Translations under genes and position numbers: made by a program | NCBI GenBank assembly: GCA_049322575.1 | Contig: JBMORQ010000015.1 | Coordinates: 13,373-77,372 of the forward strand | Source of the DNA: Patescibacteria group bacterium | GTDB taxonomy: Bacteria; Patescibacteriota; Microgenomatia; UBA1400; PJMF01 | Direction: 5' to 3' | Length of the DNA: 64,000 nucleotides | Shown here: in pieces, positions 1,603 through 50,510 of the stretch | Position numbering within the stretch: position 1 is the first letter of the stretch | Layout: each line of letters opens with the position of its first letter | Notes under the pieces: model-generated | What the model was told of the DNA's origin: nothing | Seen by the model: the letters and a program-made list of their open reading frames with translations, nothing else | The model's database searches: none

Positions 1603-1657
1603 TAGACTTATCATGAAATAACATTTTTATTACGAAATTTTATTTCGCTATAAGTCA
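1603..1657. repeat. Short hairpin copy of the dispersed palindromic repeat family (TAGACTTaTcaTGAAATA ... TATTTCgcTAtAAGTCa)
   Basis: Imperfect inverted repeat with a 19-nt loop in the virB4-dnaA intergenic region; the arms match the terminal inverted repeats of the long copies at 11683 and 50348. Confidence 0.6.
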
Positions 1658-1682
1658 ATTATTATTTTTAGTGCTTGCGCTC

Positions 1683-1691
1683 TGTGGATAA
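1683..1691 (-). promoter_or_regulatory. Perfect DnaA box (TTATCCACA on the minus strand) upstream of dnaA
   Basis: The + strand reads tgtggataa, which is the exact reverse complement of the consensus TTATCCACA, 90 bp upstream of the dnaA start. Confidence 0.6.
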
Positions 1692-1779
1692 TTATGTGTA
1701 TAACCTGATTATCTTCTAAGGGTTTTCATCAGACTTCCTGAGTATATTTAAAAAGTTTCTGCCTTCTGGTTACAAAAAC

Positions 1780-3285
1780 ATGCAATTTAATGAGGATGTC
1801 TCTCAAGGGGTTACAGCTGAAGAAATTAGTCAGGTTTGGCAAAAAGCAACAAAAAACTTGCAATCTCAGCTTTCTCCAGCCGTCTTTAGCACTTGGATTG
1901 CCTCTAATCCGCTCACATTACTTAGTTATTCACCTCCCAATAAGGCGTTGGCAACCATTACCTGTCCCTCAGCTTTTCACGCCACGAATTTAAAAAAAAA
2001 CTTATATACGCAGATAAAAGCGGCTCTTGAAGAACAAATCGGCAGAATCACTGAAATTGAGTTTAAGGTTGGGTCAGTTTTTCCAGACGCCAACCATGAA
2101 CACACCCAACAAAAAGACAGTAAGTCAACTTTTTCAACAATTACCAGAGAGGTGATAAAAAAAAGCCAAAATCTTTCACCGACAGTTGAAGAGCTGTTCT
2201 CGTCTCACATCATTCAGGCTTCAATCCAAGATCGAGCAATTGCTAAAGCGAGAGCTATTGGTCTTCGCCTGGACTATACTTTTAAAACTTTTGCTGTTTC
2301 TACTAGTAATGAGATGGCACATGCAGCTGCATCAGCCGTTTCCAATAGCCCTGGAAGCGCCTACAATCCTCTTTTTCTCTACGGTGGAGTCGGTGTTGGT
2401 AAAACCCACTTAATGCATGCAATTGGCAACAACATTTTGAAAAAAAATCCAGAAACTCACATAATCTATTGTACTGGTGAAGAATTTACCAATGAAATTG
2501 TAAGCGCCATCCAAACAAAAAAAGCTCTCTCATTTAAACAAAAATATCGAAACACCTCTGTTTTGCTAATTGATGATATTCAGTTTATTGCTGGTAAAAA
2601 CACTGTCCAAGAGGAATTTTTTCACACTTTTAACGCTTTGGTTAAACAATCAGCTCAAGTGGTGCTTACGTCTGACCGTCCTCCGCATGAAATTAATCTA
2701 CTTGAAGATAGGTTGAGGTCCCGTTTTGAGGCTGGTTTAATGATTGATATTCAACAACCATCTTTTGAGCTCCGCACTGCGATCTTATTGATAAAATCCC
2801 AAGCTTTAGGGATAAATCTACCAATGGATTTTGCCCAACAAATTGCAGAAAAGGTTGATTCAGCAAGAAAAATAGAGGGTGTAATTAATTTTCTACGGTC
2901 TGAGGTTGAGTTAAAAGGTCGAGAAATTAATCAACAATTAGTTCAAGACTTTCTCAAAATCGACACCTCTCAAAAAACCAGAATAATTAGAATTAAACCT
3001 CAAGATTTGATCAAAAAGGTTGCTACACACTACGGTGTAAAACAGTCTGCGATAAAAGGCAAGTCAAGAACAAAGGACTTAGTCTATGCAAGGCACGTTG
3101 CCATGTTTTTATTGAGAAATGAGCTTAAGATGTCACTTGAAGAGATTGGTAAGTGGTTTTCTGGAAGAGATCATACTAGCGTTCTTCACGCAATCCAAAG
3201 AGTTGATGAAATTGTCCAAAACAATGAAGAAGAAAAGTCTGATATATCTTCCTTAAAGATGAGTTTAGGATCAAGCTTCACATAG
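1780..3285 (+). CDS. dnaA: Chromosomal replication initiator DnaA
   Basis: AAA+ Walker A (GGVGVGKTHLMHAIGN) and Walker B (LLIDDIQFIAGK) motifs. The C-terminal DNA-binding domain IV carries the signature KSRTKDLVYARHVAMFLLRNELKMSLEEIGKWFSGRDHTSVLHA. Confidence 0.95.
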   Translation: MQFNEDVSQGVTAEEISQVWQKATKNLQSQLSPAVFSTWIASNPLTLLSYSPPNKALATITCPSAFHATNLKKNLYTQIKAALEEQIGRITEIEFKVGSVFPDANHEHTQQKDSKSTFSTITREVIKKSQNLSPTVEELFSSHIIQASIQDRAIAKARAIGLRLDYTFKTFAVSTSNEMAHAAASAVSNSPGSAYNPLFLYGGVGVGKTHLMHAIGNNILKKNPETHIIYCTGEEFTNEIVSAIQTKKALSFKQKYRNTSVLLIDDIQFIAGKNTVQEEFFHTFNALVKQSAQVVLTSDRPPHEINLLEDRLRSRFEAGLMIDIQQPSFELRTAILLIKSQALGINLPMDFAQQIAEKVDSARKIEGVINFLRSEVELKGREINQQLVQDFLKIDTSQKTRIIRIKPQDLIKKVATHYGVKQSAIKGKSRTKDLVYARHVAMFLLRNELKMSLEEIGKWFSGRDHTSVLHAIQRVDEIVQNNEEEKSDISSLKMSLGSSFT

Positions 3286-3538
3286 TTTTTCCACAAATGT
3301 GGATATCTCTGTGAAAAACTTGGTGAATTGATTATGGAAATCTGTGAATATTTTTAGCTCTTTGTTGATTACTTAAACGGCTCTTTGAACTAAATGAACA
3401 AGAATAAACATTTTTATTCAGGTGATTTCGCGGTATTATTAACAAGTATTTTTTATAGATTTCTAGGCTAGAAGCCGGATTTTATTAACTTATCCACATC
3501 TCCTATTGCTACTACAACTAATTATATTTATATAGAAT
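3286..3538. promoter_or_regulatory. Putative oriC in the dnaA-dnaN intergenic region, AT-rich and containing DnaA boxes
   Basis: At 3288-3308 two DnaA-box-like 9-mers face each other (ttttccaca ... tgtggatat), each one mismatch from consensus, and a perfect TTATCCACA sits at 3490-3498. The surrounding sequence is AT-rich, and a dnaA-dnaN spacer is the usual oriC position. Confidence 0.5.
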
Positions 3539-6223: not shown

Positions 6224-6678
6224 CTATTGAAGAATATATAAAAAAACTTTGCGCTTACCTAGGCATTGAGGGAGATTGTAATCTTGAGATTGAAGAGCTG
6301 GAAAAACGCATTAGAGTTTCAATAACCGTATCTGACTCTGAAGCAAGTCTTTTTATTGGCTCATACGGAGAGAGACTGGAAGCCATTGAATTGCTTTTAA
6401 AAATGATTTTTCAGGATGAAGAAGACGACAAGACGATTGTTTTTGATGTTAATGACTACCGCTTGAGAAGGGAAGAAAAAATCATAGAAAAGGCCTTGGC
6501 TTTGGCAGAAGTTGTTTTGCAAAGTGGAGAAAAGAAACGTCTTTCGAGACTTAATTCCTATGAAAGATATCTTGTTCATTTGGCAATATCTGAGGATCCA
6601 TCCCTAAGCGAAGTTGAAACTGAGTCTTTTGACTCTGAAGACGGTCGTGTCTTATTAATTAAGAGAAAAGACAGTTAA
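6220..6678 (+). CDS. jag: Jag/SpoIIIJ-associated RNA-binding protein (KH/R3H domains)
   Basis: A C-terminal R3H-like segment (ERYLVHLAISEDPSLSEVETES); it is translationally coupled to yidC by a 4-nt overlap, as in yidC-jag operons. Confidence 0.7.
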   Translation: MTIEEYIKKLCAYLGIEGDCNLEIEELEKRIRVSITVSDSEASLFIGSYGERLEAIELLLKMIFQDEEDDKTIVFDVNDYRLRREEKIIEKALALAEVVLQSGEKKRLSRLNSYERYLVHLAISEDPSLSEVETESFDSEDGRVLLIKRKDS

Positions 6679-6744
6679 TTATTTATTGGCTTAACTTGAA
6701 AAGTCGACAAGCCTCATAATTACGAGTCTTGCAATAGAAAAATT

Positions 6745-7182
6745 GTGAAAATTGAAATTTACACTGATGGTGGCTCAAGAGGAAACCCTGGTATTGCAGG
6801 AGCTGGTTTTGCTGCTTATTATCTTGACGAAGAAAAAAAAGAAGTAGATGGACATCCATTTTTTGAAGAGGCTGTGTTTTTAGGAGAAAAGACTAATAAT
6901 GAAGCCGAATATTTAGGTTTTTTAGCCTCATTGAAATGGCTATCCACCCATAAATTTGGCGAAACAATCAATATGGTGGTTTGGAAACTTGATTCAAAAC
7001 TAGTGGTTGAACAACTAAACAAGAAATGGAAGATTAAAGAGCCAAGATTAGCAAAATTTGCCCAAGAGGCATGGAGTTTTCTTTCAACCCTCCCCCATTC
7101 ATTCACAATTACTCATATTCCCAGAGAACAGAATTCTCGAGCAGATAAGTTGGCTAATCAAGCTATGGATCTAGGATCTTGA
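6745..7182 (+). CDS. rnhA: Ribonuclease HI
   Basis: Begins EIYTDGGSRGNPGIAGAGF, contains NNEAEYLGFLASLKW, and has a C-terminal H..R..N..AD motif, matching the RNase H catalytic DEDD core. Confidence 0.85.
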   Translation: MKIEIYTDGGSRGNPGIAGAGFAAYYLDEEKKEVDGHPFFEEAVFLGEKTNNEAEYLGFLASLKWLSTHKFGETINMVVWKLDSKLVVEQLNKKWKIKEPRLAKFAQEAWSFLSTLPHSFTITHIPREQNSRADKLANQAMDLGS

Positions 7183-7443
7183 TCAAATATTTACTTTTGG
7201 TTTCTATTAGGGTTGTTTTCTCGCTCGAACAAGCCATAAAAAAACTTGCCTGAAAGGAAAGCTCCTTGTCCGCGAAAACAGCTTTTCCACTATAAAATCG
7301 TTTTTCGTAACATCTTACATGGAAACATAGAATTTTCTGTGAGTTAACTTTTGAATTGTGTTCATAGATACATTAGACTTGTAATAGAACTCTGTAGAAG
7401 AACATTCTGGAACTGGTGGATTGAGACACCTAGGTAATTTCTT

Positions 7444-10400
7444 ATGTCATTAATTATCGAACAAGTTACAAAACAACCACTGGTTGTCATCATTGGCCAA
7501 ACTACGCCCTTTCTTGGCCTATTGACGCAGGCAATGAGACAAAAGAGTCTGGACTGTAAAATCTTTTTACCAACGGATATAAAATCTCTAAAAAACTGTC
7601 TGGAAAACGAGCAGGAATCTCTTTATAAAATCATTTTTGATATTACATCGACTGAAAATGGTCAAAACAGCCTGGATGAAATACTCAATACTATTACGGC
7701 TTATGGACACATCACAACTATTATCGCCAAAAGACAGACAACCTTTCATGGTTCAGATGATTTTTACAAAGAAAACTTATCTGAACAAGAACACCATCTC
7801 TCACAAATACACATCGTTAGGCAAAATTTACCAAACTCACAGCTTTTTGTTGGTCAGGATGTTGTTTTTAGCCACTCCCCTATCTCCTATCCTTTAAAGT
7901 TTTTTGTATTAAATTTGAAAAACCTAATTCTCTTTAATCCAGATCAGGAAATATATTTACAGTCTGATGAGTCATTTTTACGATCGTTTTTACCGCAAAT
8001 AACCAAGCCACATAAGTCGCAAACCATTGTGTTTCGTGGTCAAAAACAAGAAAGTCTTAAGTGGCTAGAGATAATTCAAACAAGCTATGAACAATATTTT
8101 CATAAAAAAACCCAAATAATTAACCTAGTATCTAACGTAATAAAACCAGAGTCATCCGAATACTACTCAAACGATGATGTTTTAAACAATCAGTACCTGG
8201 AACAAGAAATAATTGTTACAACTCCCGATGTAAACATTGAAGATGTGGTTGATCGATGGGTTCGCATTCTCCCCTCCCATCTCGGCGAGTTAACCTTAAA
8301 AGATCGAATAGTTGGAGCCGAGAAAAAAACTACTGAAGCTCTAATTAAACCAAATTCTCAGCTAATTAATTCTCAACAATTATTTCAAAACATCAACGAA
8401 GCTAAAAAAACCGCCCAGGGTTTATTAAACACGGCAAAAACGTCTGTGAAAACAATTAGCGATCAGCTTGTCACTCACTCCCCAACCCATCATAATTTGT
8501 TATTAAAAAAAACGCCTATAAATCAACAAAAAAACGATGTAAATCTGTTGAAGAGATCATTTATTGATAAGCGGCAAAACAGCCATGTAAATATCGATCA
8601 ACAAGAAACCTTTGTTGAAAATATCTCGCAACTCGAAACAGACAAGATAAAAAATCAATCAGAACAAGAAAACATCACCATTGACAATCAGTTGACTCAA
8701 ATCTTTGGTAAAAACAGACAGTGTTTTGCAAAAAAACGTCTCTCTTTTAAAACCGGAGTCACTAAAAAAATTATTGCTAAATCAAAGAAAAACAGGGTTC
8801 TATTTTATAGTGGTGTAGTGGTGATTTCACTCGGCTTACTCATTATGAGTTTAATTGGTGTGTATCAAACCACATTGGGACAAGCTGTTAAGAATGTCAG
8901 CATCTTAATTCAAAGTCCCAATCAAACACCCACAGATGGAGAAAGTCGTTGGTTGTCACTCTTGGAAAGACAAATTGTCTTTTACGAAAACATTCTAGAA
9001 GAGGACTTTTTTATTGATGCAAAAACACTTTTAAAGGTCTCTCGTTCATTAAAACAATCACGGCAACAACTAGACCAATATTTACAGAAAGTTGGAAACG
9101 TTTTTCAAAAGATCGTTTTAACCGGTGATAACAGCGAGGAAGACGTAAAACAACTCATGGCTCAGGCGCAAACGGCTTACGAAACACTCTCATATTTTCA
9201 AGCAGACTTGGGAGAAGTAAATCTTCAAGCCTTCTCAGCTGAAAATCAAGGAGTTTTCCAGCAACAGCAAGATCAGATTGAGCTACAACGCGAAAAACTC
9301 TCACAGTATAGCCAGATACAAAATATATTAGAGGGGTTTTTGGGTTTTGAACAGCAAAAAACTTACGCGGTTTTGATCCAAAATAATCTAGAGCTTCGAC
9401 CAACAGGCGGTTTTATTCAATCAGTTTTAATCCTAACTTTTGACAAAGGCAATTTAATAAATTCTCAAACATTTAGCGTTTATGAAATTGACAATCGTCT
9501 ACCAAGCGAAATCAAACCACCAGATGAGTTAGAGCGTATTTTGGGCGAAAAAAGATGGTTCTTGCGAGATAGTAATTGGGATCCGGATTTTCCCACCACA
9601 GCAAAACGGGTAGAGTGGTTTATTAATGAGTCACTCGGCATAAAGCTAGATGGGGTAATAGCACTCAATTATGATTCAATTCGCCAGATATTGTCAGAAA
9701 CTGGTTCCTTGGAGTTGGCAGCTCTTCAAGAAACAATTACGGAGAAAAACTTTTTTGAAAGGATTTTGTTCCACTCTGGGAGTGAGTTGTCGGCAAGCCA
9801 ACAACCTGGTTCAGATTACTATTCTCTCCTTGCCAAAGAATTAGTAAGGAGAACCACCATACTTGAGGGCGATAAAGCCGCTCAATTTTTATCAGTTCTC
9901 CATGACTCATTTAATCAAAAACAAAGCCTAATCTATTTAAACGATGAATCTCTACAACAATCAGTTCGCACCTTAGGATGGGATGGGGGATTGGTTGAGC
10001 CAGAGTGTCCTTCTAGATTTGCTAGTTCAGATTGTTACGTTGATGTCATTTTTCAAGTCGAAGCTAATGTCGGTTTAAACAAAGTTAATAACTCGGTTTA
10101 CCGAGACATCAGTCACTCGATAAATATTCAACCCAATGTGGTTAAGCACAAACGAATTGTTAAATACCAAAATAAATCTCGTTCAATAACCTGGCCTGAG
10201 GGAAACTATAGGGCTTATGTTAAGTTCTATACCAACCAAGATTCAAAGCTTATTTCAATCGAGATGAATGATAAACAGCTGTTGCCAAACGAAATGAGTC
10301 AAGAAACTGACAAGGGGAGAAGAGTTTTTGGCCTACTAATTGATGTGCCAAAAGGAGAAGAGTTGTTGTTAGAGTTAAATTACCAAGTGCCCACAAACAA

Positions 10401-10596: not shown

Positions 10597-10994
10597 TCCT
10601 TGCCCAATTGTTTGGTCAACCCATGGAGAACCTCTTACCAGGTGATGATTGTCTGACTTATGTTTTGTTGAGTGTATGAAGAAGTACGACTGTAAGAAAA
10701 TATAGTACTTTGAGAGTAATAAACACTTAGTTGTAACTGGGTATTTTGTAGTGATAAGTGGGATAAAATCCGCGGGTGTTGTTCAAAAGTCCCCCCAGAT
10801 CAATTAATTTTCACGTGCAGTTTTTAACCTCAAGAAATCAGGTGAGGATTTGGCAATTTTTTTCGTGAAAAAACTTTAAAGCTCCCCCAAGAAACCTAGC
10901 GCCTTTGGACGGACGTGATAGAATGGATTTTCGTTAGAACATTTTTAACGATATTATAAGAAATAATTATATAAATTTAAAAGAGAAGAGAGAT

Positions 10995-11663: not shown

Positions 11664-11682
11664 AAGTTTGTTCGAAATCTAA

Positions 11683-11844
11683 TAGACTTGTAGTGAAATA
11701 GCATTTTATTACGAAACTGTTTTTAAGTACTGCAAAGGCTTTTTTATTGCTCGAGGTAACTCTTGTTACTACTTCGCTCAAAAAAACCCTTTTCGTTCAA
11801 AAAAATCAGTTTTTCACTCCAAATTTTATTTCGCTACGGGTCTA
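11683..11844. repeat. Full-length copy (about 162 bp) of the dispersed repeat with terminal inverted repeats TAGACTTGTAGTGAAATA ... TATTTCGCTACGGGTCTA
   Basis: Its reverse complement aligns nearly end-to-end with the copy at 50348-50510, including the shared internal block gatttttttgaacgaaaagggtttttttgagcgaagtagta. Confidence 0.75.
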
Positions 11845-12286
11845 ATCTGGAAATTAAAGGAGAATTGGGATAGATCTCCACTGCTTTGTTTATTAGTTGC
11901 TGATTGTCGTCGCTATTTTGCTCGAGAAGTTGTTTTTCTATGGCCAAATTAAGCAGTAAAGCTTGATGAGTTGGTTGAATTTGTAGGACTTTCTTGCTTT
12001 TTTCAACATGTTGTTTGAGTTGCTCGTACGAGAGCAACTCTTCTTGGTTAATTAAATCTTGATTAATGATTTTAGGATAGGGCATTTGAATAATTTTCTG
12101 ACCGGGGGATTCGACCTTTAATTGATTAAAAAAATAAACGATTGAGAAGATAAAAATAGCAATCGAGACAAAAAGAATTTTTAAGTGTGAGATCTTGGTA
12201 AGTGCAAGCTGTAGTAAAAAACCAGCCAAAGAAAGAATTAGCCGAAAAACAAGAAAAAAGTAGCTGAGTAGATCGGGTGTGGGCAC
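11834..12286 (-). CDS. Hypothetical membrane protein (150 aa)
   Basis: An ORF with two N-terminal hydrophobic helices; its last codons overlap the repeat's terminal inverted repeat. No recognisable family. Confidence 0.4.
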   Translation of the reverse strand: MPTPDLLSYFFLVFRLILSLAGFLLQLALTKISHLKILFVSIAIFIFSIVYFFNQLKVESPGQKIIQMPYPKIINQDLINQEELLSYEQLKQHVEKSKKVLQIQPTHQALLLNLAIEKQLLEQNSDDNQQLINKAVEIYPNSPLISRLDP

Positions 12287-12371
12287 GACTTTAATAAACC
12301 TCTTTAAAACTTTACATAGAACTAATGGTTCTTGTTAAAAAACAGCCTTTAAAAATAGATTTCCAGCACAA

Positions 12372-12410
12372 TAGACTTGTGGTGAAATAACATTTTTATT
12401 ACAAATGTAG
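12372..12410. repeat. Partial copy of the dispersed repeat (left terminal inverted repeat TAGACTTGTGGTGAAATAACATTTTTATTAC)
   Basis: It directly abuts the valS stop codon at 12411 and matches the first 35 nt or so of the long copies. Confidence 0.6.
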
Positions 12411-14741
12411 TTATCTTGGCCAGTAACTGGTAATTAACAACTTTTCTTTTACCAGCTTATTATTCCATAAAACTTGCCAAATGGCTTCTGTCACAAAGGG
12501 CATAAATGGATGCAGAAGTTTGACAAAAACCTCAAGTCCTCTTACAAGCACCGGAATCGAGATTTCTCTCTGCTTGGCCTGTTCAATTTTTTGGTCGCAG
12601 AACCAATGCCAAAATTCGTTATAAATTCTTTCGGCTGCCAAGCCAACTTGATAATTGTTTAAATTATTTGTTAACTCAATTACCAATTGATCTAAATGCT
12701 CTTGAAACTCCATGTCACCGGGGTATTCTGAGGACGTTGGGTTATTGGATGCATTTTTCTGATCGGATTTTTCTGCTTCAAGCATGAGAAGAGTAAAGCG
12801 GGCGGCATTCCATAGTTTGTTCGTGAGATTGCGCGCTGCTTTAAAGTCTGAGTCACCAACAGATTTATCTAAACCAGCGGACGAACGAATAACTAGTGCC
12901 ATTCTGAGTGCGTCAGCACCGTATTTTTCGGTTATTTCAAGGGGGTTGACTACGTTGCCCTTACTCTTGCTCATTTTTTGGCCCTTTTGATCTCTAACAA
13001 GGCCATGTAGGTAAACATCGCTAAAAGGCAACTGGTTGGTGACAAAGCGCCCCATCATCAACATTCTCATTACCCAGAAGGGCAGGATATCGTAACCAGT
13101 CTCCATGACTTGGGTTGGGTAGAATTGGTCAAAATCACCGGGCTTGGTTGTTTTCAGGGTAACAAAAGGCCACTGCGAAGAAGAAAACCAAGTGTCAAAA
13201 GTGTCTGTTTCTTGAAGATAATTATCTCCTGGTTGGTTGAGACTAATAGTGTATGGGGCTTCGATTGGAGCAGTGAGTGATTGTAAACCAGAGGAAATCT
13301 CCTCAAGCGTATGGCCAACACCCATAAGATCACCAACTTTTCCGGAGATCTTATTTTTTGTTTGATCGATGAATGTCACTTGAACTTCTGGGCATTCCAC
13401 AACGTTATACCAGACTGGCATGCGAATTCCCCAGACAATTTGACGTGAAATGTTCCAATCTTGAAGGTTTTCTAGCCAATGTTTAAGGATTTTGTCGTGT
13501 CCAGCTCCATGTACTCTGATTTCTCGTCTCTTCAATGAATCAAGAATTGGTTGTGTGAGAGGTTTAACCTGGATATAAAACTGGGGTAGGGGGAGAGGCT
13601 CGATGATTGTTTGACAACGATAACAAACTCCAATGTTATTTTTATAATTATCCTGAACTTTCTCCAAGAGACCTTTTTCTAGTAGGGCCTCAACGATTTG
13701 AGGTCGAGCAACATGGGCTTTAAGACCAGCATAGGGTCCGGCAATCTCTGTGAGCCTGCCGCTATAATCAATAGCCATTTTTGGATGTGGCATTTCATCT
13801 TTGTGTCTTTGCCAAGCTTCAAAGTCATTAAAATCGTGGAAAGGTGTTATTTTTACCACCCCAGTGCCAAACTCAGGGTCAACAAACTCGTCCGCAACCA
13901 CTTTGAGTTTAAATTTCCCAAGTAAACCATCGCATTCAATTTCTTGTCCAACATATTGTTGGTAGCGTTTGTCTTGAGGATGAACGGCGACAGCTGTGTC
14001 GGCGAATTTTGTTTCTGGTCTGGTTGTGGCGAGGGTAAAAGGGCCGTATTTTATATAGTAGAGTTTGGTTAAGTTTTCTTGATGTGAAACCTCAAGGTTG
14101 CTAAAAGCCGTGCCACATTTTGTACAATAATTAACAAGGCGATTTTCCCGATAAATCAATCCTTTTTCTTTTAACAAAATAAAAGTCTGTAAAACCTCTT
14201 GAACCACACTCTTGTCTAAAGTAAATTTGTAGCGACTCCAATCGGCACTTGCCCCAAGTTTTTTGATCTGGTTAATAGCCAAATCAGAGTTTTCCTGAAC
14301 ATAATCCCAGATCATTTGATATAGCGTTTCTCGGTCAAACTGGAAACGGCTTTGTCCTTGTTTTTTTAGTTTCTTTTCAAAAACAAATTGTGTTTCAATT
14401 CCCGCGTGATCTGTTCCAGGCAGCCAAAGGGTTTTATCACCAAGCATGCGGTGATACCTGATCAGGATGTCCTCAAGAGCTACAAACATAGCGTGGCCGA
14501 TGTGCAATGGATCATTGGCATTTGGAGGGGGCATGATAATGCAAAAAGGCTTGCGGAGACTTTGTTTTTCTAATGGTTTAAGTGGTGAATTGTTTTGGTT
14601 TATTCCAGAGTCAGATGAGTGGTTCCTATGCACATTAATTGCGTCAGGATCAAATGCTTGTGCCTCTTCCCACAATTCATAGATTTTTGACTCGTGAAGC
14701 GAGTGCTCATATCGTTTGTCCATATCTGGTGATTGTAGCAT
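12411..14741 (-). CDS. valS: Valyl-tRNA synthetase, short form (776 aa)
   Basis: A class I HIGH motif in the ValRS context (PPPNANDPLHIGHA), the KMSKSKGN motif, and a DWNISRQIVWG..P.WY editing/anticodon signature that matches ValRS (DWCISRQ). Confidence 0.85.
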   Translation of the reverse strand: MLQSPDMDKRYEHSLHESKIYELWEEAQAFDPDAINVHRNHSSDSGINQNNSPLKPLEKQSLRKPFCIIMPPPNANDPLHIGHAMFVALEDILIRYHRMLGDKTLWLPGTDHAGIETQFVFEKKLKKQGQSRFQFDRETLYQMIWDYVQENSDLAINQIKKLGASADWSRYKFTLDKSVVQEVLQTFILLKEKGLIYRENRLVNYCTKCGTAFSNLEVSHQENLTKLYYIKYGPFTLATTRPETKFADTAVAVHPQDKRYQQYVGQEIECDGLLGKFKLKVVADEFVDPEFGTGVVKITPFHDFNDFEAWQRHKDEMPHPKMAIDYSGRLTEIAGPYAGLKAHVARPQIVEALLEKGLLEKVQDNYKNNIGVCYRCQTIIEPLPLPQFYIQVKPLTQPILDSLKRREIRVHGAGHDKILKHWLENLQDWNISRQIVWGIRMPVWYNVVECPEVQVTFIDQTKNKISGKVGDLMGVGHTLEEISSGLQSLTAPIEAPYTISLNQPGDNYLQETDTFDTWFSSSQWPFVTLKTTKPGDFDQFYPTQVMETGYDILPFWVMRMLMMGRFVTNQLPFSDVYLHGLVRDQKGQKMSKSKGNVVNPLEITEKYGADALRMALVIRSSAGLDKSVGDSDFKAARNLTNKLWNAARFTLLMLEAEKSDQKNASNNPTSSEYPGDMEFQEHLDQLVIELTNNLNNYQVGLAAERIYNEFWHWFCDQKIEQAKQREISIPVLVRGLEVFVKLLHPFMPFVTEAIWQVLWNNKLVKEKLLITSYWPR

Positions 14742-16721: not shown

Positions 16722-16763
16722 AACCCCGCCTTGCGGCGGGGTTCATCAAACAAACTGAATATC

Positions 16764-17637: not shown

Positions 17638-17686
17638 ATGGTTTTTGTTAATACTTGTTTTACTTTTAAAGTGTCAATTATTTGTA

Positions 17687-34122: not shown

Positions 34123-34212
34123 CATAGATTCCCTGAGGATATGGCGCTATGCGAGATACTTATGGCGTTTGGCTTCTTCTCGATTAGTAGAAAAAAATGT
34201 ATCATGTAGCAG

Positions 34213-35180: not shown

Positions 35181-35191
35181 ATTAACAAAAA

Positions 35192-37534: not shown

Positions 37535-37551
37535 AGAAAAACGATGTTTTC

Positions 37552-40500
37552 ATGCATGAAAAAATTGCTTATCAACCAAAGGATTCACAAAATTCTATTA
37601 GCTTGGCAAAAGAAGAGCTTGTTGTTTTGGAAGAGATTAGAAAGAAGATAGTTGCTGCTGACATCGATTTTAGACTCTCTACTGAGGATTATAAAAATCT
37701 CCTAGAATTGGGTCTTGATAAAAAATGCAACCTTTGGACGAGGAACGATTTACTGTCGGTAATAGTTCTTAGAATCAAGTTTATTTCTCAAGAAATCTTA
37801 GAAAAGACAGACGCAATAAATTTTTTTTCTGATGTAATAGGTAGTTCAGAGATGACCAATGATGGTGAGATTGTATTGCAAAAGGATGCTGATGGTATTG
37901 ACGGTGTTTGCAATAAGGTTCTTCAAAGTCTTGCAACTATTTTTCCAGACAATAAAAACGAGTTACAGGACAAATTGGCTTTTTCGGCAAATCATTTCTT
38001 ATCAATTGGCAATGCATTGGCCTATTTAGCGACGAGCAGTAATCCGACATTTTTTCAGCAAATTGAAACAGAGCTTTTAAATGAAAATCTGATTTGCAAA
38101 ATGAGAAGTGTTTGGTCGCAGGACATGAAAGATGCATTAAACGCCTGTCATCGCGAAAAGACAAAGGAGAGCTATCAGAGATTATTAAAGGCTTATCAGC
38201 GCGAAAAACCAAGGCTGATAGTGTTTTTATGTTTTGCAGTTTCTATGAGTATGTTTGAATCGACTGACCATGGTAATTTTGATAAGCATGCTGAAAGAAT
38301 TATAAAGGGTTTAGAGGACAGTAATTTTATTGGTTCGTTTGTTACTCATGCTGAAGTTATGCAAATTGTTGGAAGCATAGATGCTAATAAAAAACAAAAG
38401 GTTCAACCACAATTGGCGCAATATTTAAAATCGAAACTTGAGAGCGGAGAAATAAACTCTGGGTTTGCGCTCGAAATTTTTGCTTCTGCAAAGAATGGCT
38501 CATCTCTTTTAGAAAGTCCTAGTTTTATCAGATTTTTTGCTGAGATGGAATCATTTTTGATGGATGATTATCTAATTAAAGAAAATGATGCTAAACAAAG
38601 ACTGAGAATTAATCCAAATGTTAGGGCGATTGCCTCATTATTATTGTTGTCAATGTTTTTTGTTGGTGATTCAAAAACATATAGCAGACCTCAGTTACAG
38701 TTAGATTTTGGTAGGTTTTTCCCGATAACCATGAACGTTTTTGGTGGCTTGGAAGAAGGAATCGATACGGTAATCCAAAGGGTTAAGTTTGAAGATAAAA
38801 AAGAAGACGTTGTTGTTGAAGAAAAAAAAGAAACGGTTTCGGTAGAATCTTTAGGTATTGACCCAAAAGCTGTTAATAGCTCTGTGGAAGGACTGGATCA
38901 GGAGTCAGATAGGCAACATGAGGCCGCTCAAAAACTTGCCAATGAACTAGGTGAAAAAGATATCAACGAGTTTTTAATCGATTCTCCCGCTAGCCCAAGT
39001 AGTTTATCGAAATTTCAAACCGGGGCTGTCTCTGCCGAGGGTTATATTGCAACAGGTTATGAGGTTGGTTGTACTTTTAGGAAATCAAGTAGTAGCTCAA
39101 TCGGTTTTTTTAGTAAGGTTTTGTATGACAAAATAGATCCTGGTTCTGGAGAATTTGTTTCAAGCTGGAGTCCATCCAACGAAATTCCCCAGGAGCTTGA
39201 GCAGATTCCAATGATTGTTGCTTCTAGTGGAATGGAAATAATAATTTGCAAATTGTCCGAATTGCAGCCGAATAATTGGTACAGCATCGCAACTACCCCA
39301 TCTCGTTCAGTAGTGCGTGGTCAACTTGTTGCAGATAATCAAGGTGATCAAATTTTGATTCCGATTGAGGTTGTTAAAGATCCAGAAAGTACAACAAGTT
39401 TTTTTAGAATAAATGAAAAATATAAAGAAGATCTTAGCCGGTCGTCTGATTTCCAATTGGTTTATGAACTTGGAGACCCCTTTGATTATCCCCAAAAAGA
39501 AAAGGATGACGGGGTGCCGTTTCTGGACAGAGAATATATTGATCCGGCAATTATGCAAATAATTGACCAGCTCAATGCTGATAAGAATATGGACGAATAT
39601 GAGAAGCTAGTTGTGTTGCGTAAGGCCATGCAAAATTATGGAATATATAGTGTTGATCCAAAAAATGATCAAGATAAGTATTTAGCAGAATTTGTTGGAA
39701 AAGTTGATGCTGCCACTTATACAAAGCTGCGATATTCTTTGTATTTTGGTCAATATGAGCGATTTGGTTTAACGTCCGATACTGGTCCAGTCAAAGGTGC
39801 TGGCGAATGTAATAGATCAAATGGAGCAGCGTTTTTAGCCTTTGAGCATCTTATACTAAACGACTGGAAGATTCGCTTAAGAAGTGGTGACGTGATCTCT
39901 GAAAATGAAAAATATGGTTTTGCTGGATCTGGCCATATTTATATTGAAGCGGTCAACATTAAAAATGGCGAAATAATAGACCTTGATACAACATCTTCTA
40001 ATATAGATGCATACACCCAATCTTTGAGAGCAAAAGGACACGATCCATCAGTGGCCTTTGATGCAAATTTTGAACAATTAGCTAGTGGGACGTTAACAAT
40101 TACTGACTATGATTACAGTAATTATGTAACACCCGATACTTCACTTAACATAGAAGTAGCCTTGATCAGAAAGTCAGAGTGGGGCTGGCCTGTTACGCTT
40201 GATGATGAACTTCTTGCAAAAATTAATACTCCAGACAATTTCATTAATTATAATGATTGGTTTTCTCCTGATAAACTCAAGAAATGGATTGTAAATAGTA
40301 ACTATGGTTATGAGATTAATGTGGCAGATGAGGATGGTGGTGTTGATTACTGTATGCCGGTTTTTAGCAAAAATGATGGATTTACGACTCAAATTACTCC
40401 AGATTCAGTGCTAACTGATGGAATAATTAAAAATAAATTTTTAATTGAAAGAGTCGCTGACAAGGCTATGAAAATGAGGCGTGATTTTGTTGTTGAAATA

Positions 40501-42597
40501 AATGGAACCAACATGTTTCCTTTACCGATTCTTTGGTATGTATCAGTTCCGAGTATACGTTTGAGCACTCCTGATGGTGAGCCAGTAGAAATACAGTTAG
40601 TTGGAATAAAGAATTATGATCAGCCATTTATTTTAATTACCGACCCCAAATATATCGATAGCAAAGAAAGCAATGTTTTCATTTTAAGTTATCTATCTGG
40701 GGCGCTTACTGATAACCGTGATTTTTCTGCAGGAACTTATAAATATGGGTCAGTTGAGCCTCGAGATTTTTATGAAGCTAGGACCAGACTAGAAAATCTG
40801 GGCTTTTCTACTAACGACGCTGAAAGTGCAATTCTCGCAGCTAGAATCATCCAAATAAATGAGCTTTTGGGATCGTCAATCAAATATGGAGAGTGGCAAG
40901 GCAGAGATTTGATTTTCAACAACCTTCTTTCTTTGCAAGCGGACGCACAAGAAATGAATAATGAAAATGCGATTGTTTATGTTGGTGAGCTTTTAAAACT
41001 ATTTAAATTTGCAGATGATTTCATAACATTTTACAGTTCACTAACTAATGAAGAAAAAATGAATGTAAAAATATCAAGTCAATTAAAAATTATTATTGAG
41101 TCGGTTGACTGGCAATTGCTTAAATTAGAAACACCTACTAGCTTCGTAGGAACCGACGATGAAATAATTTATTATGTTGGCGCTGAAAAGATTGAGTATG
41201 TTGACTCACTTTTCTCATATATTTTTTCCTCGTTTTCCCAGCTCATGCCGTCAGAAGGATCAGTTAAGCCATTCACTTCTGGAAAAAGCTCAGAATCAGA
41301 GAATAATCTCAATAACTATTGTGCTGGTGTGTCAATTGATTTTAATGATTTAGCAGCTTGTCAGCTTCAATCACCATTTTTACCGAGTGGTGATGAAATG
41401 GTTAGTGCTATACGAAGAGCAATATTTAACATTGATGATGACTCACCAGTTTTTGAATTATTTTTTCATGATTATAATCCAGTAGAAATTATTAGAGGCA
41501 ATGATGTTATGGCTTCATTACCACTCTCTCAATTTACGCTTGATGACGAAGACGTCGCAGGCGGGATATTTCTTAAAGATGGCAGTGTGGGACCATCATC
41601 TTTTCTCCTTAACAATTCAAGGGCAGACTTATCATGGTGGCAGTATTTCCTTGATAATGAGAAAGGCAATTACAGTGAAGATCAAATTGTCACGCTCTAC
41701 GACACATTGATTAATGTTATCTCTGAGGATCCCGAAAGATATCTTGCTCAGGAACAGTTGCAGAGTCTCAGCGAAGAAAACAAGCAAGAGTTAATCAATA
41801 GATTGCAGGAAAGAGAATTAGAAAAAGTAAAGTTTCTATTTGAGCACATTTGTCGTTCGTTAGTAAAAGGTAACTATAAAGTTTGGAGTTCTTATTTAGC
41901 ACTTCTTTTGCCATTGGCAGCTGGTGCTTATGGTGCCATGCGTTGGCATGCTGAAACATATGATTGGAAGAGGAAGCGATTAAAAAGTATTGAGCTTGAA
42001 AAAGAACTTAAGTTGATTAGTGAAACCTTCAATTTGGAGATTGATTTAGTACGTGCCCATTTTGAAGATCTTGCCAAATCTAGGTCGATGGTTTTAGCCT
42101 TATCCGGAAATGTGAATCCGGAAAATGGCGAATATGATCATCTAAATTTACTGAGACGCTTGGTTGTTACTGCTCTCAAAACCACCGGAGAGACCAGGAT
42201 GCCTTTTAATCTGGGTTTTGAATCAGAGGCAAATAATCCATGGTCAAGCCACGACGTTCCGGCTACCTATTATTCTCATATTGATCAAGCAGTTAATGGT
42301 GGTCAAATTGAAGCAGTTGCATCACTTTGGCCAGACAACCATCAAGCGGCAGTGGTAAAGCAACTTGGCGAAATGTTTAAAGTTGGATCTGGAGGAAAAG
42401 TCATTTCTGCCAATGAGCAAGTTTTAAAAACCCCAGATCAATTTCAAAGACAATTATTGCTAAAAGCGATTGATGATTTACAAAAATCCGGCGTATCGGT
42501 GGAAAAATACCAACAGCAAGCTATTGAGCAAGTAGTTGCCTCTTGTGTTAAGACTTGGCAACAAATTATGATGGATTATCAAAGGATTAAATCATGA
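37552..42597 (+). CDS. Giant protein (1681 aa) of unknown function with an internal papain-fold (transglutaminase/CHAP/NlpC-P60-like) Cys-His-Asp core and a C-terminal transmembrane helix
   Basis: An uninterrupted ORF that starts 17 nt after the T4CP stop codon. At about nt 39780-39990 it encodes GAGECNRSNGAAFLAF...GSGHIYIEAV...IDLDTT, which matches a C-x(~40)-H-x(~15)-D papain-fold core. A C-terminal hydrophobic helix is present (VWSSYLALLLPLAAGAYGAM). Confidence 0.55.
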   Translation: MHEKIAYQPKDSQNSISLAKEELVVLEEIRKKIVAADIDFRLSTEDYKNLLELGLDKKCNLWTRNDLLSVIVLRIKFISQEILEKTDAINFFSDVIGSSEMTNDGEIVLQKDADGIDGVCNKVLQSLATIFPDNKNELQDKLAFSANHFLSIGNALAYLATSSNPTFFQQIETELLNENLICKMRSVWSQDMKDALNACHREKTKESYQRLLKAYQREKPRLIVFLCFAVSMSMFESTDHGNFDKHAERIIKGLEDSNFIGSFVTHAEVMQIVGSIDANKKQKVQPQLAQYLKSKLESGEINSGFALEIFASAKNGSSLLESPSFIRFFAEMESFLMDDYLIKENDAKQRLRINPNVRAIASLLLLSMFFVGDSKTYSRPQLQLDFGRFFPITMNVFGGLEEGIDTVIQRVKFEDKKEDVVVEEKKETVSVESLGIDPKAVNSSVEGLDQESDRQHEAAQKLANELGEKDINEFLIDSPASPSSLSKFQTGAVSAEGYIATGYEVGCTFRKSSSSSIGFFSKVLYDKIDPGSGEFVSSWSPSNEIPQELEQIPMIVASSGMEIIICKLSELQPNNWYSIATTPSRSVVRGQLVADNQGDQILIPIEVVKDPESTTSFFRINEKYKEDLSRSSDFQLVYELGDPFDYPQKEKDDGVPFLDREYIDPAIMQIIDQLNADKNMDEYEKLVVLRKAMQNYGIYSVDPKNDQDKYLAEFVGKVDAATYTKLRYSLYFGQYERFGLTSDTGPVKGAGECNRSNGAAFLAFEHLILNDWKIRLRSGDVISENEKYGFAGSGHIYIEAVNIKNGEIIDLDTTSSNIDAYTQSLRAKGHDPSVAFDANFEQLASGTLTITDYDYSNYVTPDTSLNIEVALIRKSEWGWPVTLDDELLAKINTPDNFINYNDWFSPDKLKKWIVNSNYGYEINVADEDGGVDYCMPVFSKNDGFTTQITPDSVLTDGIIKNKFLIERVADKAMKMRRDFVVEINGTNMFPLPILWYVSVPSIRLSTPDGEPVEIQLVGIKNYDQPFILITDPKYIDSKESNVFILSYLSGALTDNRDFSAGTYKYGSVEPRDFYEARTRLENLGFSTNDAESAILAARIIQINELLGSSIKYGEWQGRDLIFNNLLSLQADAQEMNNENAIVYVGELLKLFKFADDFITFYSSLTNEEKMNVKISSQLKIIIESVDWQLLKLETPTSFVGTDDEIIYYVGAEKIEYVDSLFSYIFSSFSQLMPSEGSVKPFTSGKSSESENNLNNYCAGVSIDFNDLAACQLQSPFLPSGDEMVSAIRRAIFNIDDDSPVFELFFHDYNPVEIIRGNDVMASLPLSQFTLDDEDVAGGIFLKDGSVGPSSFLLNNSRADLSWWQYFLDNEKGNYSEDQIVTLYDTLINVISEDPERYLAQEQLQSLSEENKQELINRLQERELEKVKFLFEHICRSLVKGNYKVWSSYLALLLPLAAGAYGAMRWHAETYDWKRKRLKSIELEKELKLISETFNLEIDLVRAHFEDLAKSRSMVLALSGNVNPENGEYDHLNLLRRLVVTALKTTGETRMPFNLGFESEANNPWSSHDVPATYYSHIDQAVNGGQIEAVASLWPDNHQAAVVKQLGEMFKVGSGGKVISANEQVLKTPDQFQRQLLLKAIDDLQKSGVSVEKYQQQAIEQVVASCVKTWQQIMMDYQRIKS

Positions 42598-49351: not shown

Positions 49352-49425
49352 AGATTGACGTTGGAGGAAATAAGACAGCTTTTGAATAAATTTTAGTTCA
49401 AAAAAACGGTTTTTCGCTAGTAAAC

Positions 49426-50064
49426 TTATTTCTTAGACAGTCTATTTTGGAGATATTCTTTTACGTTTTTAATAATGATATCTTTAATTTGAGAGTCGGA
49501 ATATTCTTTTCCGACCCATTCAATTGGTGTCATTTCCAAATCATCAAAGAAAGTTAGTGGATCGAGAATCCATCTCTGGTTTATTTGATATCTGGCAACT
49601 GACTCTTCGACAGCTTCTTTTAGTGAGCAAACACTTTGTTCCAAACAGATGGCTACATCAACATAATCTCTCCACGTGGCTCTTCTGCCTATGACATAAA
49701 GCTTTGAACTAAAAATATCTTTGATGTTTACAAGGGAAAAATTTTCAAAATCTTGTGGATTGTGTAAGAGTGGCGCTTCGTCTTGAAAGAAAGTAATTTT
49801 TACTTCATCGGCAAAAGCTGTATATTGTGATTCTGAAAGCAGGCGTTGTGATAAATCAAAATTTTTGAGGACTTGTTGGACTTTTTTTACTAAATCAGCT
49901 CCTATTTTTTCCTGGGTAACGAAATCTAAATCATATGATTTTCTGTGGCCAATTTGCAGGGAAAGAGCAGTTCCTCCTAGTAATTTACCAAGATTTAAAT
50001 TTCCGAGTTTTTCTAGTAGTTCCAGTTGTTTGGCAGAAACTGTTTCAAAGTGCAAATTTGACAT
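49426..50064 (-). CDS. Nucleotidyltransferase of the AbiEii/DUF1814 type (type IV toxin-antitoxin or abortive-infection toxin-like)
   Basis: Contains LGGTALSLQIGHRKSYDLDF, which matches the AbiEii signature (l.GGTAL.l..gHR.S.DlDf). Confidence 0.6.
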   Translation of the reverse strand: MSNLHFETVSAKQLELLEKLGNLNLGKLLGGTALSLQIGHRKSYDLDFVTQEKIGADLVKKVQQVLKNFDLSQRLLSESQYTAFADEVKITFFQDEAPLLHNPQDFENFSLVNIKDIFSSKLYVIGRRATWRDYVDVAICLEQSVCSLKEAVEESVARYQINQRWILDPLTFFDDLEMTPIEWVGKEYSDSQIKDIIIKNVKEYLQNRLSKK

Positions 50065-50338
50065 AGTTTTCTTTATCGATGGAATCTGAAATTTTTAGCA
50101 AATAATTTTTGACGAAATTAAAAGTTTGGGGCTGATATGTAGATCTAGGTCTATTAACAAAAGTATTCTTAATTTTAGTTAGAGAATAAATCTTCTCAAG
50201 CCATTTAAAATCGTTTAAATCACCGTATTGCAACACTTGATGAATAATGTATTCACGGTGTTTTTCTTTATCAAGTTGAGAAAAATCACACGACCAAAAA
50301 ATTTTTTGTGCAGATCTGGGTAAGCTCTTTAAGGCCAT
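50045..50338 (-). CDS. Small protein partner of the AbiEii-like gene (possible antitoxin); the start is moved to the ATG at 50338
   Basis: It overlaps the downstream AbiEii-like gene by 20 nt. The ORF-track start at 50362 is a TTG lying inside the repeat's terminal inverted repeat, whereas the first ATG, at 50336-50338, lies just outside the repeat. Confidence 0.35.
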   Translation of the reverse strand: MALKSLPRSAQKIFWSCDFSQLDKEKHREYIIHQVLQYGDLNDFKWLEKIYSLTKIKNTFVNRPRSTYQPQTFNFVKNYLLKISDSIDKENYVKFAL

Positions 50339-50347
50339 AGCTGAAAT

Positions 50348-50510
50348 TAGACTTGTAGCCAAATAAAATTTTGTAGTGAAAAATTGATTTTTTTGAACGA
50401 AAAGGGTTTTTTTGAGCGAAGTAGTAGCATAGCTAATTCGAGCGAGAAAAAAACCTTTGTAGTACTTAAAAGCAGTTTTGTAATAAAAATGTTATTTCAC
50501 TACAAGTCTA
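50348..50510. repeat. Full-length copy (163 bp) of the dispersed repeat with terminal inverted repeats TAGACTTGTAGCCAAATA ... TATTTCACTACAAGTCTA
   Basis: It is near-identical, in inverted orientation, to copy 11683-11844 and shares the internal block ttgaacgaaaagggtttttttgagcgaagtagta. Confidence 0.75.

Follow-up and report, generated by a model that had tools for sequence, protein, structure and literature searches.

What is the palindromic sequence that recurs between the genes of a 64-kb stretch of DNA (the window), taken from the dnaA region of a Patescibacteria MAG (Microgenomates/Pacebacteria-like), and what has distributed it there? A sequence-only reading of the window had described a dispersed, MITE/REP-like repeat family with terminal inverted repeats. 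When the 18-mer TAGACTTGTAGTGAAATA was searched with up to 3 mismatches, 12 matches were found in the window, compared to 0.08 expected from shuffles, and shuffled windows never gave more than one match. Thus, the family is real. We consider it highly likely that these repeats form a MITE family whose movement depends on an IS5-type transposase acting in trans.

Using an nhmmer profile with shuffle checks, we listed 14 features at 11 intergenic sites in the 64 kb, comprising 3 full copies of about 163 bp, 5 short two-ended forms of 38 to 78 bp, 4 partial or degraded copies, and 2 solo ends. The elements are 38 to 164 bp in size, no ORF is contained within any of them, and together they occupy about 1.1 kb (about 1.7%) of the window, with none located past 50.6 kb. 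Divergence among the copies is 12–35%. Two good ends are kept in 5 of 14 features, leaving 9 in which at least one good end is missing.

The full copy at 11683–11844 (162 bp, + strand) lies in the spacer that separates the L25 gene from a convergent ORF of 150 aa, whose last codons and stop come from the right end of the element. It is flanked by AAT on both sides and forms a long hairpin of −45.9 kcal/mol (z = −6.3). The second, at 50348–50510 (163 bp, − strand), is located between the AbiEii gene and a MacB/FtsX-type permease gene with ATT on both sides, and its hairpin has −46.7 kcal/mol (z = −5.6). A doubtful 105-aa ORF with a TTG start overlaps 50348–50362. The two copies had been called near-identical; they are only similar, with 87.8% identity over a 172-bp alignment. 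What had been taken as a third long copy at 30218–30418 contains a full copy, at 30257–30420 (+ strand), preceded by an adjoining 39-bp mini element at 30218–30256, which sits directly 3′ of the TAA stop of an MFS transporter gene (fold z = −3.9). The copy at 30257–30420 is diverged, about 65% identical to the others, and since it was among the 4 sequences from which the profile was built, its nhmmer E value of 3.6e-44 holds by construction; independent support comes from a BLAST alignment with 65% identity over 181 bp.

The 56-bp mini element at 1603–1658, between a VirB4-like gene and dnaA, consists of two ends without a core, both within 3 mismatches of the motif, and is flanked by ATT on both sides; its fold has −14.6 kcal/mol (z = −6.4). 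The 38-bp one at 34086–34123, of which the first 3 bases are the TAG stop codon of a DUF192 gene, also folds stably (z = −5.1), and both hairpin-only forms proposed earlier are borne out. Besides the mini element next to the third full copy, there are a 43-bp element at 26991–27033 with a degenerate right end, located where the DNA ligase and glycosyltransferase genes converge (fold z = −3.7), and a 78-bp element at 35103–35180 with a degenerate left end, an intact right end, and AAT on both sides. The latter stops 11 nt short of the start codon ATG of a VirD4-like gene and showed no significant hairpin (z = −0.5).

Among the incomplete copies, the one at 12372–12410 (+ strand) retains the left end, with 1 mismatch to the motif, and about 20 nt more (nhmmer E = 1.5e-4), and abuts the valS stop codon. 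The copy at 32568–32672 (+ strand), upstream of lgt, covers profile positions 33–166 with a degenerate right end (E = 2.7e-7), and its score was reached by 0 of 300 shuffles. Thus, all four partial copies listed in the sequence-only reading, including those at 26991 and 35103, were recovered. A degraded remnant that it had placed at 7215–7400 was supported with changed coordinates: the internal part of a full copy, its ends unrecognisable, lies at 7172–7312 (+ strand, RNase H/DUF4012 spacer; profile positions 20–160, E = 2.9e-10, 0 of 300 shuffles), and a separate solo end-like 18-mer, TAGACTTGTAATAGAACT, at 7374–7391 (+ strand), which is weak because it has 5 mismatches to the motif. The other proposed remnant, at 10700–10960, gave no nhmmer match, and its best local alignment score was reached by 86 of 300 shuffles. 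Two further sites had not been listed before: a weak right-end remnant at 49391–49444 (+ strand), overlapping the AbiEii gene stop (BLAST E = 7e-5; nhmmer E = 0.047; 0 of 300 shuffles), and a solo end with 3 mismatches at 50553–50570 (− strand), 43 bp from the full copy at 50348–50510.

The copies are found in both orientations, as had been noted, and the claim that every copy is intergenic is essentially right, except that several overlap the stop or last codons of an adjacent ORF. Neighbouring ORFs at 11834–12286, 33582–34088, and 49426–50064 enter element ends by a few codons only. Copies are often placed at gene 3′ ends, and all 3 full copies point the same way with respect to the gene upstream of them (n = 3 only). 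Such placement would fit elements of MITE origin that the host has put to use or that affect the host, whether through an RNA hairpin (stabilising mRNA 3′ ends, terminating transcription, or being cut by RNase III) or through a structural site in DNA. No enrichment of terminator or promoter patterns was seen at the copies, and a scan against Rfam matched nothing other than a tRNA. Together with the comparisons of relatives and hairpins described below, this makes a host role quite unlikely in our view.

The ends themselves indicate how the family may move. The terminal inverted repeats of about 20 bp, with the consensus TAGACTTGTAG(C/T)GAAATA(A/G), are conserved in the window and in at least 50 elements elsewhere. 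A 3-bp direct duplication of the form A-N-T, mostly AAT or ATT, flanks AGACTTG...CAAGTCT, as was found when target-site duplication, a check proposed along with the original description, was tallied over 51 distinct two-ended elements from many genomes. The base beside TAGAC... and ...GTCTA was identical on both sides in 42 of the 51 (A/A in 24, T/T in 16, C/C in 1, and G/G in 1, compared to A/T in 1 and T/A in 4), and the A-N-T 3-mer was a perfect direct repeat in 73%. Since the base outside TA is also directly duplicated, the duplication is 3 bp and not TA. In the window, a perfect 3-bp repeat flanks four elements in which both ends are readable (those starting at 1603, 11683, 35103, and 50348), and in several other copies the duplication is imperfect (2 of 3 bases) or absent.

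The same ends of about 20 bp also bound complete insertion sequences of 1.02–1.07 kb (1018–1074 bp), each encoding a DDE_Tnp_4/IS5-family transposase of about 300 aa, and the A-N-T duplication fits 7 of 7 full IS copies. Their hosts are Collierbacteria (L090:4-1024), Daviesbacteria (L092:1563-2636), and Paceibacterota (L073:5727-6744), with ORFs of 298–314 aa, and one Chloroflexia MAG (CAWBQF01), which carries 4 copies, each of 1074 bp with a 323-aa ORF; a close variant is present on cyanobacterial plasmids. The transposases score 89–102 bits against Pfam DDE_Tnp_4 (cut-off 24.8) and 43–67 bits against DDE_Tnp_1 (cut-off 23), and HTH_Tnp_4 is also present. The best NCBIfam model is IS5_4, of which the cut-off of 140 was not reached (90–98 bits in Patescibacteria and Chloroflexia, 68 bits in Nostoc); on these model scores, the assignment of the putative partner stands at the level of the IS5 family, not of a named subgroup. 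The transposase family is large, with at least 1253 protein clusters, most of them from contigs that are about 1 kb long and consist of the IS alone. Resemblance between MITE and IS is limited to the ends, about 20–30 nt, and MITE cores vary between lineages while the ends are conserved.

These ends bear directly on the REP half of the earlier MITE/REP-like label, in which the palindromes would be spread by a Y1 (RAYT, IS200/IS605-like) transposase; an IS200/IS605 TnpA had been named as one possible partner. Hallmarks of REP/RAYT systems are palindromes that are short, G+C-rich, and headed by GTAG or CGTC, together with an associated Y1 transposase. The hairpin-only forms of 38–56 bp are REP-sized and the ends do contain a GTAG tetranucleotide, but the elements are A+T-rich, their ends are about 20 bp long, and GTAG is internal and not at the head. 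The elements are flanked by a 3-bp direct duplication, while to our knowledge RAYT/REP systems make no target duplication, and about 40 window ORFs covered by a non-exhaustive scan included no Y1 transposase. The same ends bound an IS that encodes a DDE and not a Y1 transposase, and therefore the REP-like reading fails; we give it almost no credence. The MITE half of the label is supported by size, lack of coding capacity, terminal repeats, target duplication, IS-matched ends, and presence/absence differences, with a DDE transposase of the IS5 family (DDE_Tnp_4 with HTH_Tnp_4) as the likely partner.

From the shared ends and target sites, we infer that transposases of the IS5 type moved the window copies. 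A DDE transposase of the IS5 family, about 300 aa long and carrying HTH_Tnp_4 and DDE_Tnp_4, is predicted to bind and cleave the element at its ends of about 20 bp; it would be encoded by a 1.02–1.07-kb IS with the same ends and supplied in trans. Excision of the element would be followed by insertion into an A-N-T target (AAT or ATT in most cases), and duplication of the 3-bp target would yield AAT-AGACTTG...CAAGTCT-AAT. By analogy, the chemistry is presumably the cut-and-paste reaction established for IS5 and PIF-Harbinger DDE enzymes.

Comparison with related genomes also points to mobility. In two relatives, L097 and L099, the gene order from dnaA to valS is shared with the window, and their ValS proteins are 67–69% identical to that of the window. 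Over the organisms used to compare filled and empty sites, ValS identity is 67–70%, so that the comparison is between lineages and not strains. No end or profile match was found in 22 kb of L097 and L099, and their spacers are 26–66 bp where those of the window are 124–261 bp. For example, the RNase H/DUF4012 spacer measures 261 bp in the window, whereas L097 has 66 bp there and L099 has 26 bp; the spacer holding the copy at 12372 is 124 bp compared to 44–45 bp in both; and the one orthologous to the site of the full copy at 11683 is 36 bp in L097. The one exception is the spacer between a hypothetical gene and L25 in L099, which has 250 bp compared to 170 bp in the window, without an end match. 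L105 and L106, with the same local gene order, contained no elements either. The four element-free relatives were compared over 6–22 kb, and spacers in two of them. A fifth, L104, carries copies at other sites, among them a 162-bp copy of its own, and other Patescibacteria MAGs are also densely populated with elements. Such presence/absence differences among syntenic relatives argue for mobility, and because copies are missing from the orthologous spacers of four of them, these are not conserved regulatory sites as a host role would suggest. Additionally, three 51-bp mini elements with a common 9-nt core occupy different loci of one MAG, so the ends alone suffice for mobility.

A host role would account for the conservation of the hairpin. 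As the folding check proposed earlier confirmed, the long hairpins are very stable (z about −6), and compensatory change was found in 17 of 53 hairpin pairs, a number reached by 0 of 500 shuffles. In the internal arms, the subfamilies diverge almost only by pair-preserving double changes, and both ends of the copy at 30257–30420 are altered yet still paired, with both partners changed at alignment columns 7/158, 9/156, and 10/155. These compensatory changes, including those at the ends of that copy, are not predicted by end recognition by the transposase alone. However, G.U and A.C cells occur in similar numbers (14 and 13), so neither strand is favoured as RNA, and many truncated copies have lost the fold. 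Compensatory changes without strand bias suggest that, rather than RNA function, the cause lies at the DNA level and may be an advantage in transposition or quasi-palindrome ‘correction’ during replication. The subfamilies have an asymmetric central core in common and therefore did not arise by independent fold-back births. A structured non-coding RNA family, considered as a separate candidate, was rejected on the basis of no curated match beyond the tRNA, symmetric covariation, and loci that are not conserved in relatives. The pair-preserving changes of the internal arms, the altered but paired ends of the copy at 30257–30420, and the shared asymmetric core leave room for the idea that the long hairpin is itself under selection, apart from recognition of its ends, which we regard as unlikely. 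If it were true, this IS5-type family would have folded DNA (a cruciform or single-strand hairpin uniting both ends) as its actual transposition substrate, or transposition would be strongly enhanced by that form; alternatively, the elements would do something for the host in these minimal genomes.

The MITE reading leaves the question of present movement. No transposase gene or full-length IS was found by tblastn in the 64-kb window or in two Logan contigs of the same organism. Because the copies are 12–35% diverged, often truncated, and not accompanied by a transposase in the window, most of them are probably old relics. The family may even be wholly dead in this genome, consisting of fossils of an old burst after loss of the transposase. 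The few features with two good ends fit this, as does a subfamily-specific 24-mer that had no match in JGI metagenomes; against it, the window is 64 kb out of perhaps about 1 Mb, and intact IS copies exist in related Patescibacteria. We find this plausible while leaning slightly against it, and it bears on present activity, not on the identity of the elements.

The family is an ordinary kind of mobile DNA, and no earlier report of it in Patescibacteria was found. Our literature search turned up neither a publication containing these end sequences nor one that deals with patescibacterial MITEs, and within its reach the description of the repeats as previously unnoted is correct, although the element type is well known and a close variant of both the IS and the MITE is carried by cyanobacteria. 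Patescibacteria have genomes of about 1 Mb that are usually called streamlined. One lineage nevertheless has a MITE copy or remnant about every 5 kb, and four relatives with the same gene order have none in the 6–22 kb compared; thus, bursts of non-autonomous transposons occur even in reduced genomes. Short-read assemblies of these genomes break because of the copies, and the two Logan contigs both terminate inside the copy at 11683–11844. The conserved ends provide a simple marker for the IS/MITE family across phyla, and masking or annotating the copies avoids misreading their ends as regulatory sites or gene 3′ ends. Genetic tractability of Patescibacteria is only recent, and the 51-bp two-ended mini elements, as a minimal mobile unit, could help in the construction of transposon tools there. 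The understanding of the MITE mechanism is unchanged by these findings.

Among known systems, IS5-family IS of the DDE_Tnp_4/PIF-Harbinger type share with the partner IS a length of about 1 kb, a single ORF of about 300 aa with HTH_Tnp_4 and DDE_Tnp_4, ends of about 20 bp, and a 3-bp duplication of an A/T-rich target with a palindromic frame. In the IS1031 and ISL2 groups (ISfinder), the duplicated target is TNA, whereas the triplet here is A-N-T, with the element delimited as AGAC...GTCT, and not T-N-A. Correia elements of Neisseria and RUP elements of Streptococcus pneumoniae are likewise hairpin-forming intergenic MITEs of about 100–160 bp with ends that include TA. Their target duplication is TA, in contrast to 3 bp here, and their partner is of the IS630 type or unknown, in contrast to the IS5 type here. 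Plasmid pNPUN02 of Nostoc punctiforme carries an IS of 1005 bp that ends in TAGACTTGTCGGGAAATAAGA and is flanked by AAT on both sides, and a MITE of 139 bp with these ends is present on a Nostoc flagelliforme plasmid; the ends of both differ from those of the window in the central triplet only. The Nezha MITE, described along with ISNpu3-like elements of Nostoc and Anabaena and summarized in PMC3184786 after Zhou et al. 2008, has about 130–170 bp, a stable hairpin, A+T-rich targets, and ends in common with a Nostoc punctiforme IS. By this description, it resembles our family as a hairpin-forming MITE of similar size with IS-matched ends. For one Nezha copy, however, a later paper (PMC6042816) gives direct repeats of 10 bp, CATTATCTAC, unlike the 3-bp A-N-T found here, which makes identity of the two families doubtful. 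The MITEs of Porphyromonas gingivalis, BrickBuilt, and Neisseria ATR are also intergenic, multicopy type II elements with IS5-family-matched ends and an unrelated core, and differ in their GAGACC... ends, hosts, and variable duplication lengths (PMC4596501).

The dispersed palindromic repeats picked out by the sequence-only reading form a real family in the window: the 18-mer TAGACTTGTAGTGAAATA, with up to 3 mismatches allowed, matched the window 12 times, compared to a mean of 0.08 and a maximum of 1 in dinucleotide-preserving shuffles. The copies at 11683-11844 (+) and 50348-50510 (-) aligned end to end with 87.8% identity. An nhmmer profile, built from the three long copies of the window and one related copy and run against the window, returned full copies at 11680-11846, 30254-30420 and 50346-50513, a copy at 7172-7312 that is degraded and lacks ends (E=3e-10), part of a copy at 32568-32672 (E=3e-7), and, in short or truncated form, copies at 1603-1658, 12370-12414, 26989-27043, 34064-34126, 35150-35181 and 49396-49443. 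A solo end, i.e. a lone terminal repeat, at 50553-50570 was found by the end-motif search and was absent from the earlier list. Local-alignment scores at 7183-7443, 32543-32751 and 49352-49470 were matched by none of 300 shuffles each. The stretch first taken as a third long copy (30218-30418) does contain a diverged full copy, at 30257-30420, and also a separate 39-bp mini (a short two-ended form without the core) adjoining it at 30218-30256. The remnant suggested at 10700-10960 was not recovered, having no profile match and an alignment score equalled by 86 of 300 shuffles. Since the spacer there is about 150 bp longer than that of relatives, an eroded insertion is possible, but nothing shows one.

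Every copy was located between ORFs or overlapped only their last few codons, in agreement with the intergenic placement originally described. The stop codon of the DUF192 gene is the TAG of a MITE end (34086-34088), the stops of a 150-aa ORF and of the AbiEii gene fall inside MITE ends (11834-11844 and 49426-49444), and those of the MFS gene (30215-30218) and valS (12410-12413) each touch a copy. This overlap fits a T-A-W-T target preference overlapping TAA stops.

The genes run in the order VirB4-like, dnaA, dnaN, rpmH, rnpA, yidC, RNase H, DUF4012, L25 and valS, and the window further contains a cluster of T4SS-pilin genes and a DNA ligase of the Lig1 type. Since cumulative GC skew is lowest at about 2-4 kb, 1603-1760 probably belongs to the replication origin region; the 56-bp mini at 1603 lies about 25 bp from the DnaA-box-like TGTGGATAA, just upstream of dnaA. 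The VirB4-like ATPase is encoded at 13-1545, with conjugation-like or type IV secretion genes scattered across the window, including the gene of a VirD4-like coupling protein and, after it, a 1681-aa ORF without Pfam match (35192-42597). The T4SS-pilin paralogues at 16278-19307 (-) account for a direct-repeat family (D6), and the ATP-dependent ligase (dnl1 model) is at 25008-26975. Two blocks of unusual composition, without MITE copies, make up 52000-64000. The 52-58 kb block (GC 0.47-0.49) holds a 764-aa ORF at 55531-57825 (-) that lacks a Pfam match and contains a 141-nt tandem repeat (57241-57549), and a tRNA-Ile with anticodon UAU at 53962-54036 (-), which is uncommon, as AUA is read in most bacteria by a lysidine-modified CAU tRNA instead. 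The 58-64 kb block (GC 0.30-0.34), with an ABC-2 transporter and GT2 glycosyltransferases, is probably a surface-polysaccharide island.

The autonomous partner type of the MITE family was identified as an IS5-type DDE insertion sequence with ends TAGACTTGTAGYGAAATA. One genome per species in the GTDB set (596 Gb) was scanned for TAGACTTRTRGYGAAATA, and only inverted pairs were counted, since about 140 single 18-mer matches would arise by chance in a set of this size. The pairs fell into three size classes of 46-60 bp, about 143-166 bp and about 1020-1074 bp, the last of which consists of insertion sequences with a single ORF of 298-323 aa each. Four nearly identical copies were found on 750-800-kb contigs of a Chloroflexia MAG, and one each in a Collierbacteria contig (L090), a Daviesbacteria contig (L092) and the interior of a 137-kb Paceibacterota contig (L073). 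Their ORFs matched Pfam DDE_Tnp_4 with 93-102 bits (cut-off 24.8), as well as DDE_Tnp_1 and HTH_Tnp_4, while the best NCBIfam model was IS5_4, "IS5 family transposase", with a score under the model's cut-off. Identity among the three Patescibacteria transposases is 51-56%, and 31-34% between these and the Chloroflexia one; despite this divergence the 18-bp ends are nearly alike. The transposase family comprises at least 1253 protein clusters at E<=1e-10, mostly on contigs of about 1 kb with nothing but the IS; the few names given by the sources read "transposase family protein" (Gottesmanbacteria, Methylomirabilota). Hosts labelled "Gammaproteobacteria" and "Pseudomonadales" in the end scan should not be trusted. 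At least one of them, the MAG or contig CAYILC010000013.1 ("uncultured Pseudomonadales bacterium"), probably belongs to a Patescibacterium that was given the wrong label, judging from its VirB4-like protein, 76% identical to that of the window; it also encodes TraC-like and PrgI-like proteins resembling those of the syntenic relative L099. A predicted viral contig (IMGVR_UViG_2846165226_000002, GC 0.35) also has a two-ended mini, at 4343 to about 4385, whose left end is perfect and whose right end is degenerate; the contig may have served to spread the element, or may be host DNA wrongly called as viral.

The MITE resembles the IS only at its ends (20-30 nt), which is the pattern of type II MITEs. 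The ends of about 20 bp, TAGACTTGTAG(C/T)GAAATA(A/G), are conserved across genomes and the cores differ by lineage. Diverged subfamilies nevertheless have in common an asymmetric central core, ...CTCAAGTAGCTCTGGCTACTATCGTCA..., indicating a single ancestral element; that each subfamily arose independently by fold-back is thereby disfavoured. In one MAG, three 51-bp minis with the common core AACCGTTTC lie on different contigs with different flanks. As the same core recurs at different sites, two ends separated by about 10 nt suffice for copying, which makes this the minimal unit.

Target-site duplications were sought in a set of 51 distinct elements with both ends present, of which 11 were minis, 33 MITEs and 7 IS copies. 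The base outside TAGAC.../...GTCTA was alike on both sides in 42 of 51 (A/A 24, T/T 16, C/C 1, G/G 1), and unlike pairs were A/T in 1 and T/A in 4. An inverted repeat would give A opposite T; like bases were seen instead, and the flanks are thus a direct repeat. When the element is delimited as AGACTTG...CAAGTCT, this is a 3-bp repeat A-N-T, perfect in 73% of the 51. All 7 IS copies had direct repeats, 6 of them perfect and the seventh with one outer-base mismatch. In the window, the duplication was perfect at four elements, 1603 (ATT), 11683 (AAT), 35103 (AAT) and 50348 (ATT), and the flanks of others agreed at 2 of 3 bases. A TA-only duplication of the IS630/Correia type was ruled out because the next base outward is also directly duplicated. 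An origin of the repeats as REP elements mobilized by RAYT was rejected, since the partner is a DDE enzyme, a target duplication is present and the elements are A+T-rich. The MITE family is genuine and well delimited.

The ValS of the window has a 100% identical counterpart in an NCBI entry, "MAG: Patescibacteria group bacterium". Comparison with relatives, the nearest of which have ValS 64-70% identical to that of the window and go under the names Pacebacteria, Woesebacteria or Microgenomates, showed that the family expanded separately in different lineages, as copies occupy differing sites or are missing. The contigs L097 (ValS 67% identical) and L099 (69%) retain the dnaA-to-valS gene order of the window, with no end-motif or profile match in 22 kb. 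Spacers in the window, L097 and L099 were 170, 36 and 250 bp for hyp/L25, 261, 66 and 26 bp for RNase H/DUF4012, and 124, 45 and 44 bp for valS/hyp; the hyp/L25 spacer of L099, longer than that of the window, had no end match inside. A DNA ligase gene at the edge of L097 shares its three Pfam domains with the ligase of the window. No copies were found in L105 and L106 either. In comparison, L104 (69%; Logan SRR27366713) has its own 162-bp copy at 7107-7268, between prenyltransferase and amino-acid kinase genes, in a cluster of ends (6259-8979) with solo ends at 6259, 7324, 7355 and 8962, and its insertion sites are empty in the window. The end-like remnant CTTATTTAGCAAGTACTCTA in the valS/hyp spacer of L104 may be orthologous to the truncated copy at 12372. 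JGI metagenome scans, using the Lgt protein for orthologous loci and a subfamily-specific 24-mer, gave no matches, nor did a BLAST comparison of the MITE with plasmids. Two Logan contigs (SRR32167786), identical to the window, end 24-30 nt inside the 11683-11844 copy (L001 at 11706, L096 at about 11815), as expected of an assembler at a repeat; the repeat breaks k=31 assemblies.

Orthologous spacers without copies also make it unlikely that the repeats are purely a host-functional RNA or regulatory site. Further against such a role, there was no strand bias and no match to a known RNA family in Rfam, and scans of 23 kb covering eight copies, with promoter and terminator consensus patterns, gave site numbers no higher than in shuffled sequence, and no site recurred consistently in the copies. 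Whether the window copies are mostly relics of transposition is close to an even call: no transposase gene was found in the 64 kb, divergence of the copies is 12-35%, and the majority are truncated.

In structure prediction, the full copies form one long hairpin of -45.9 and -46.7 kcal/mol (z = -6.3 and -5.6). Compensation was examined in the Patescibacteria subfamily with the best sampling, using 12 copies, in which 93% of cells were standard pairs and two-sided changes occurred in 17 of 53 pairs (54 cells). These compensation and pairing values were reached by none of 500 shuffles, and slid controls gave only 6-9 such cells. Compensation lay mostly in internal helices and the end helix was nearly invariant; an impression of arms without co-variation, gained from the ends only, was overturned by this full-length test. 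In the window's own subfamily, the 30257 copy has three end pairs changed to C-G on both arms. G.U and A.C cells were about equal in the 12 copies (14 and 13), so that neither strand is favoured as RNA. Two candidate causes of the compensation are that a folded form of the DNA favours transposition and that quasi-palindromes are corrected by template switching. Hairpin compensation is the sole non-routine feature of the family.

Our literature search found no paper containing these end sequences and none on MITEs in Patescibacteria. A close variant of the IS/MITE pair is carried by cyanobacterial plasmids. Nostoc punctiforme pNPUN02 has a 1005-bp IS with ends TAGACTTGTCGGGAAATAAGA and AAT/AAT flanks, whose transposase is 36% identical to that of the Collierbacteria IS; close variants are also a 1067-bp IS in Stanieria and a 139-bp MITE in a Nostoc flagelliforme plasmid. 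This pair may be the published ISNpu3/Nezha pair (Zhou et al. 2008, as summarised in PMC3184786), which we regard as a lead rather than a finding; PMC6042816 gives the direct repeat of one Nezha copy as 10 bp. In its mechanism, the window family appears to match IS5-family/PIF-Harbinger-type elements, with their 3-bp duplications and derived MITEs.
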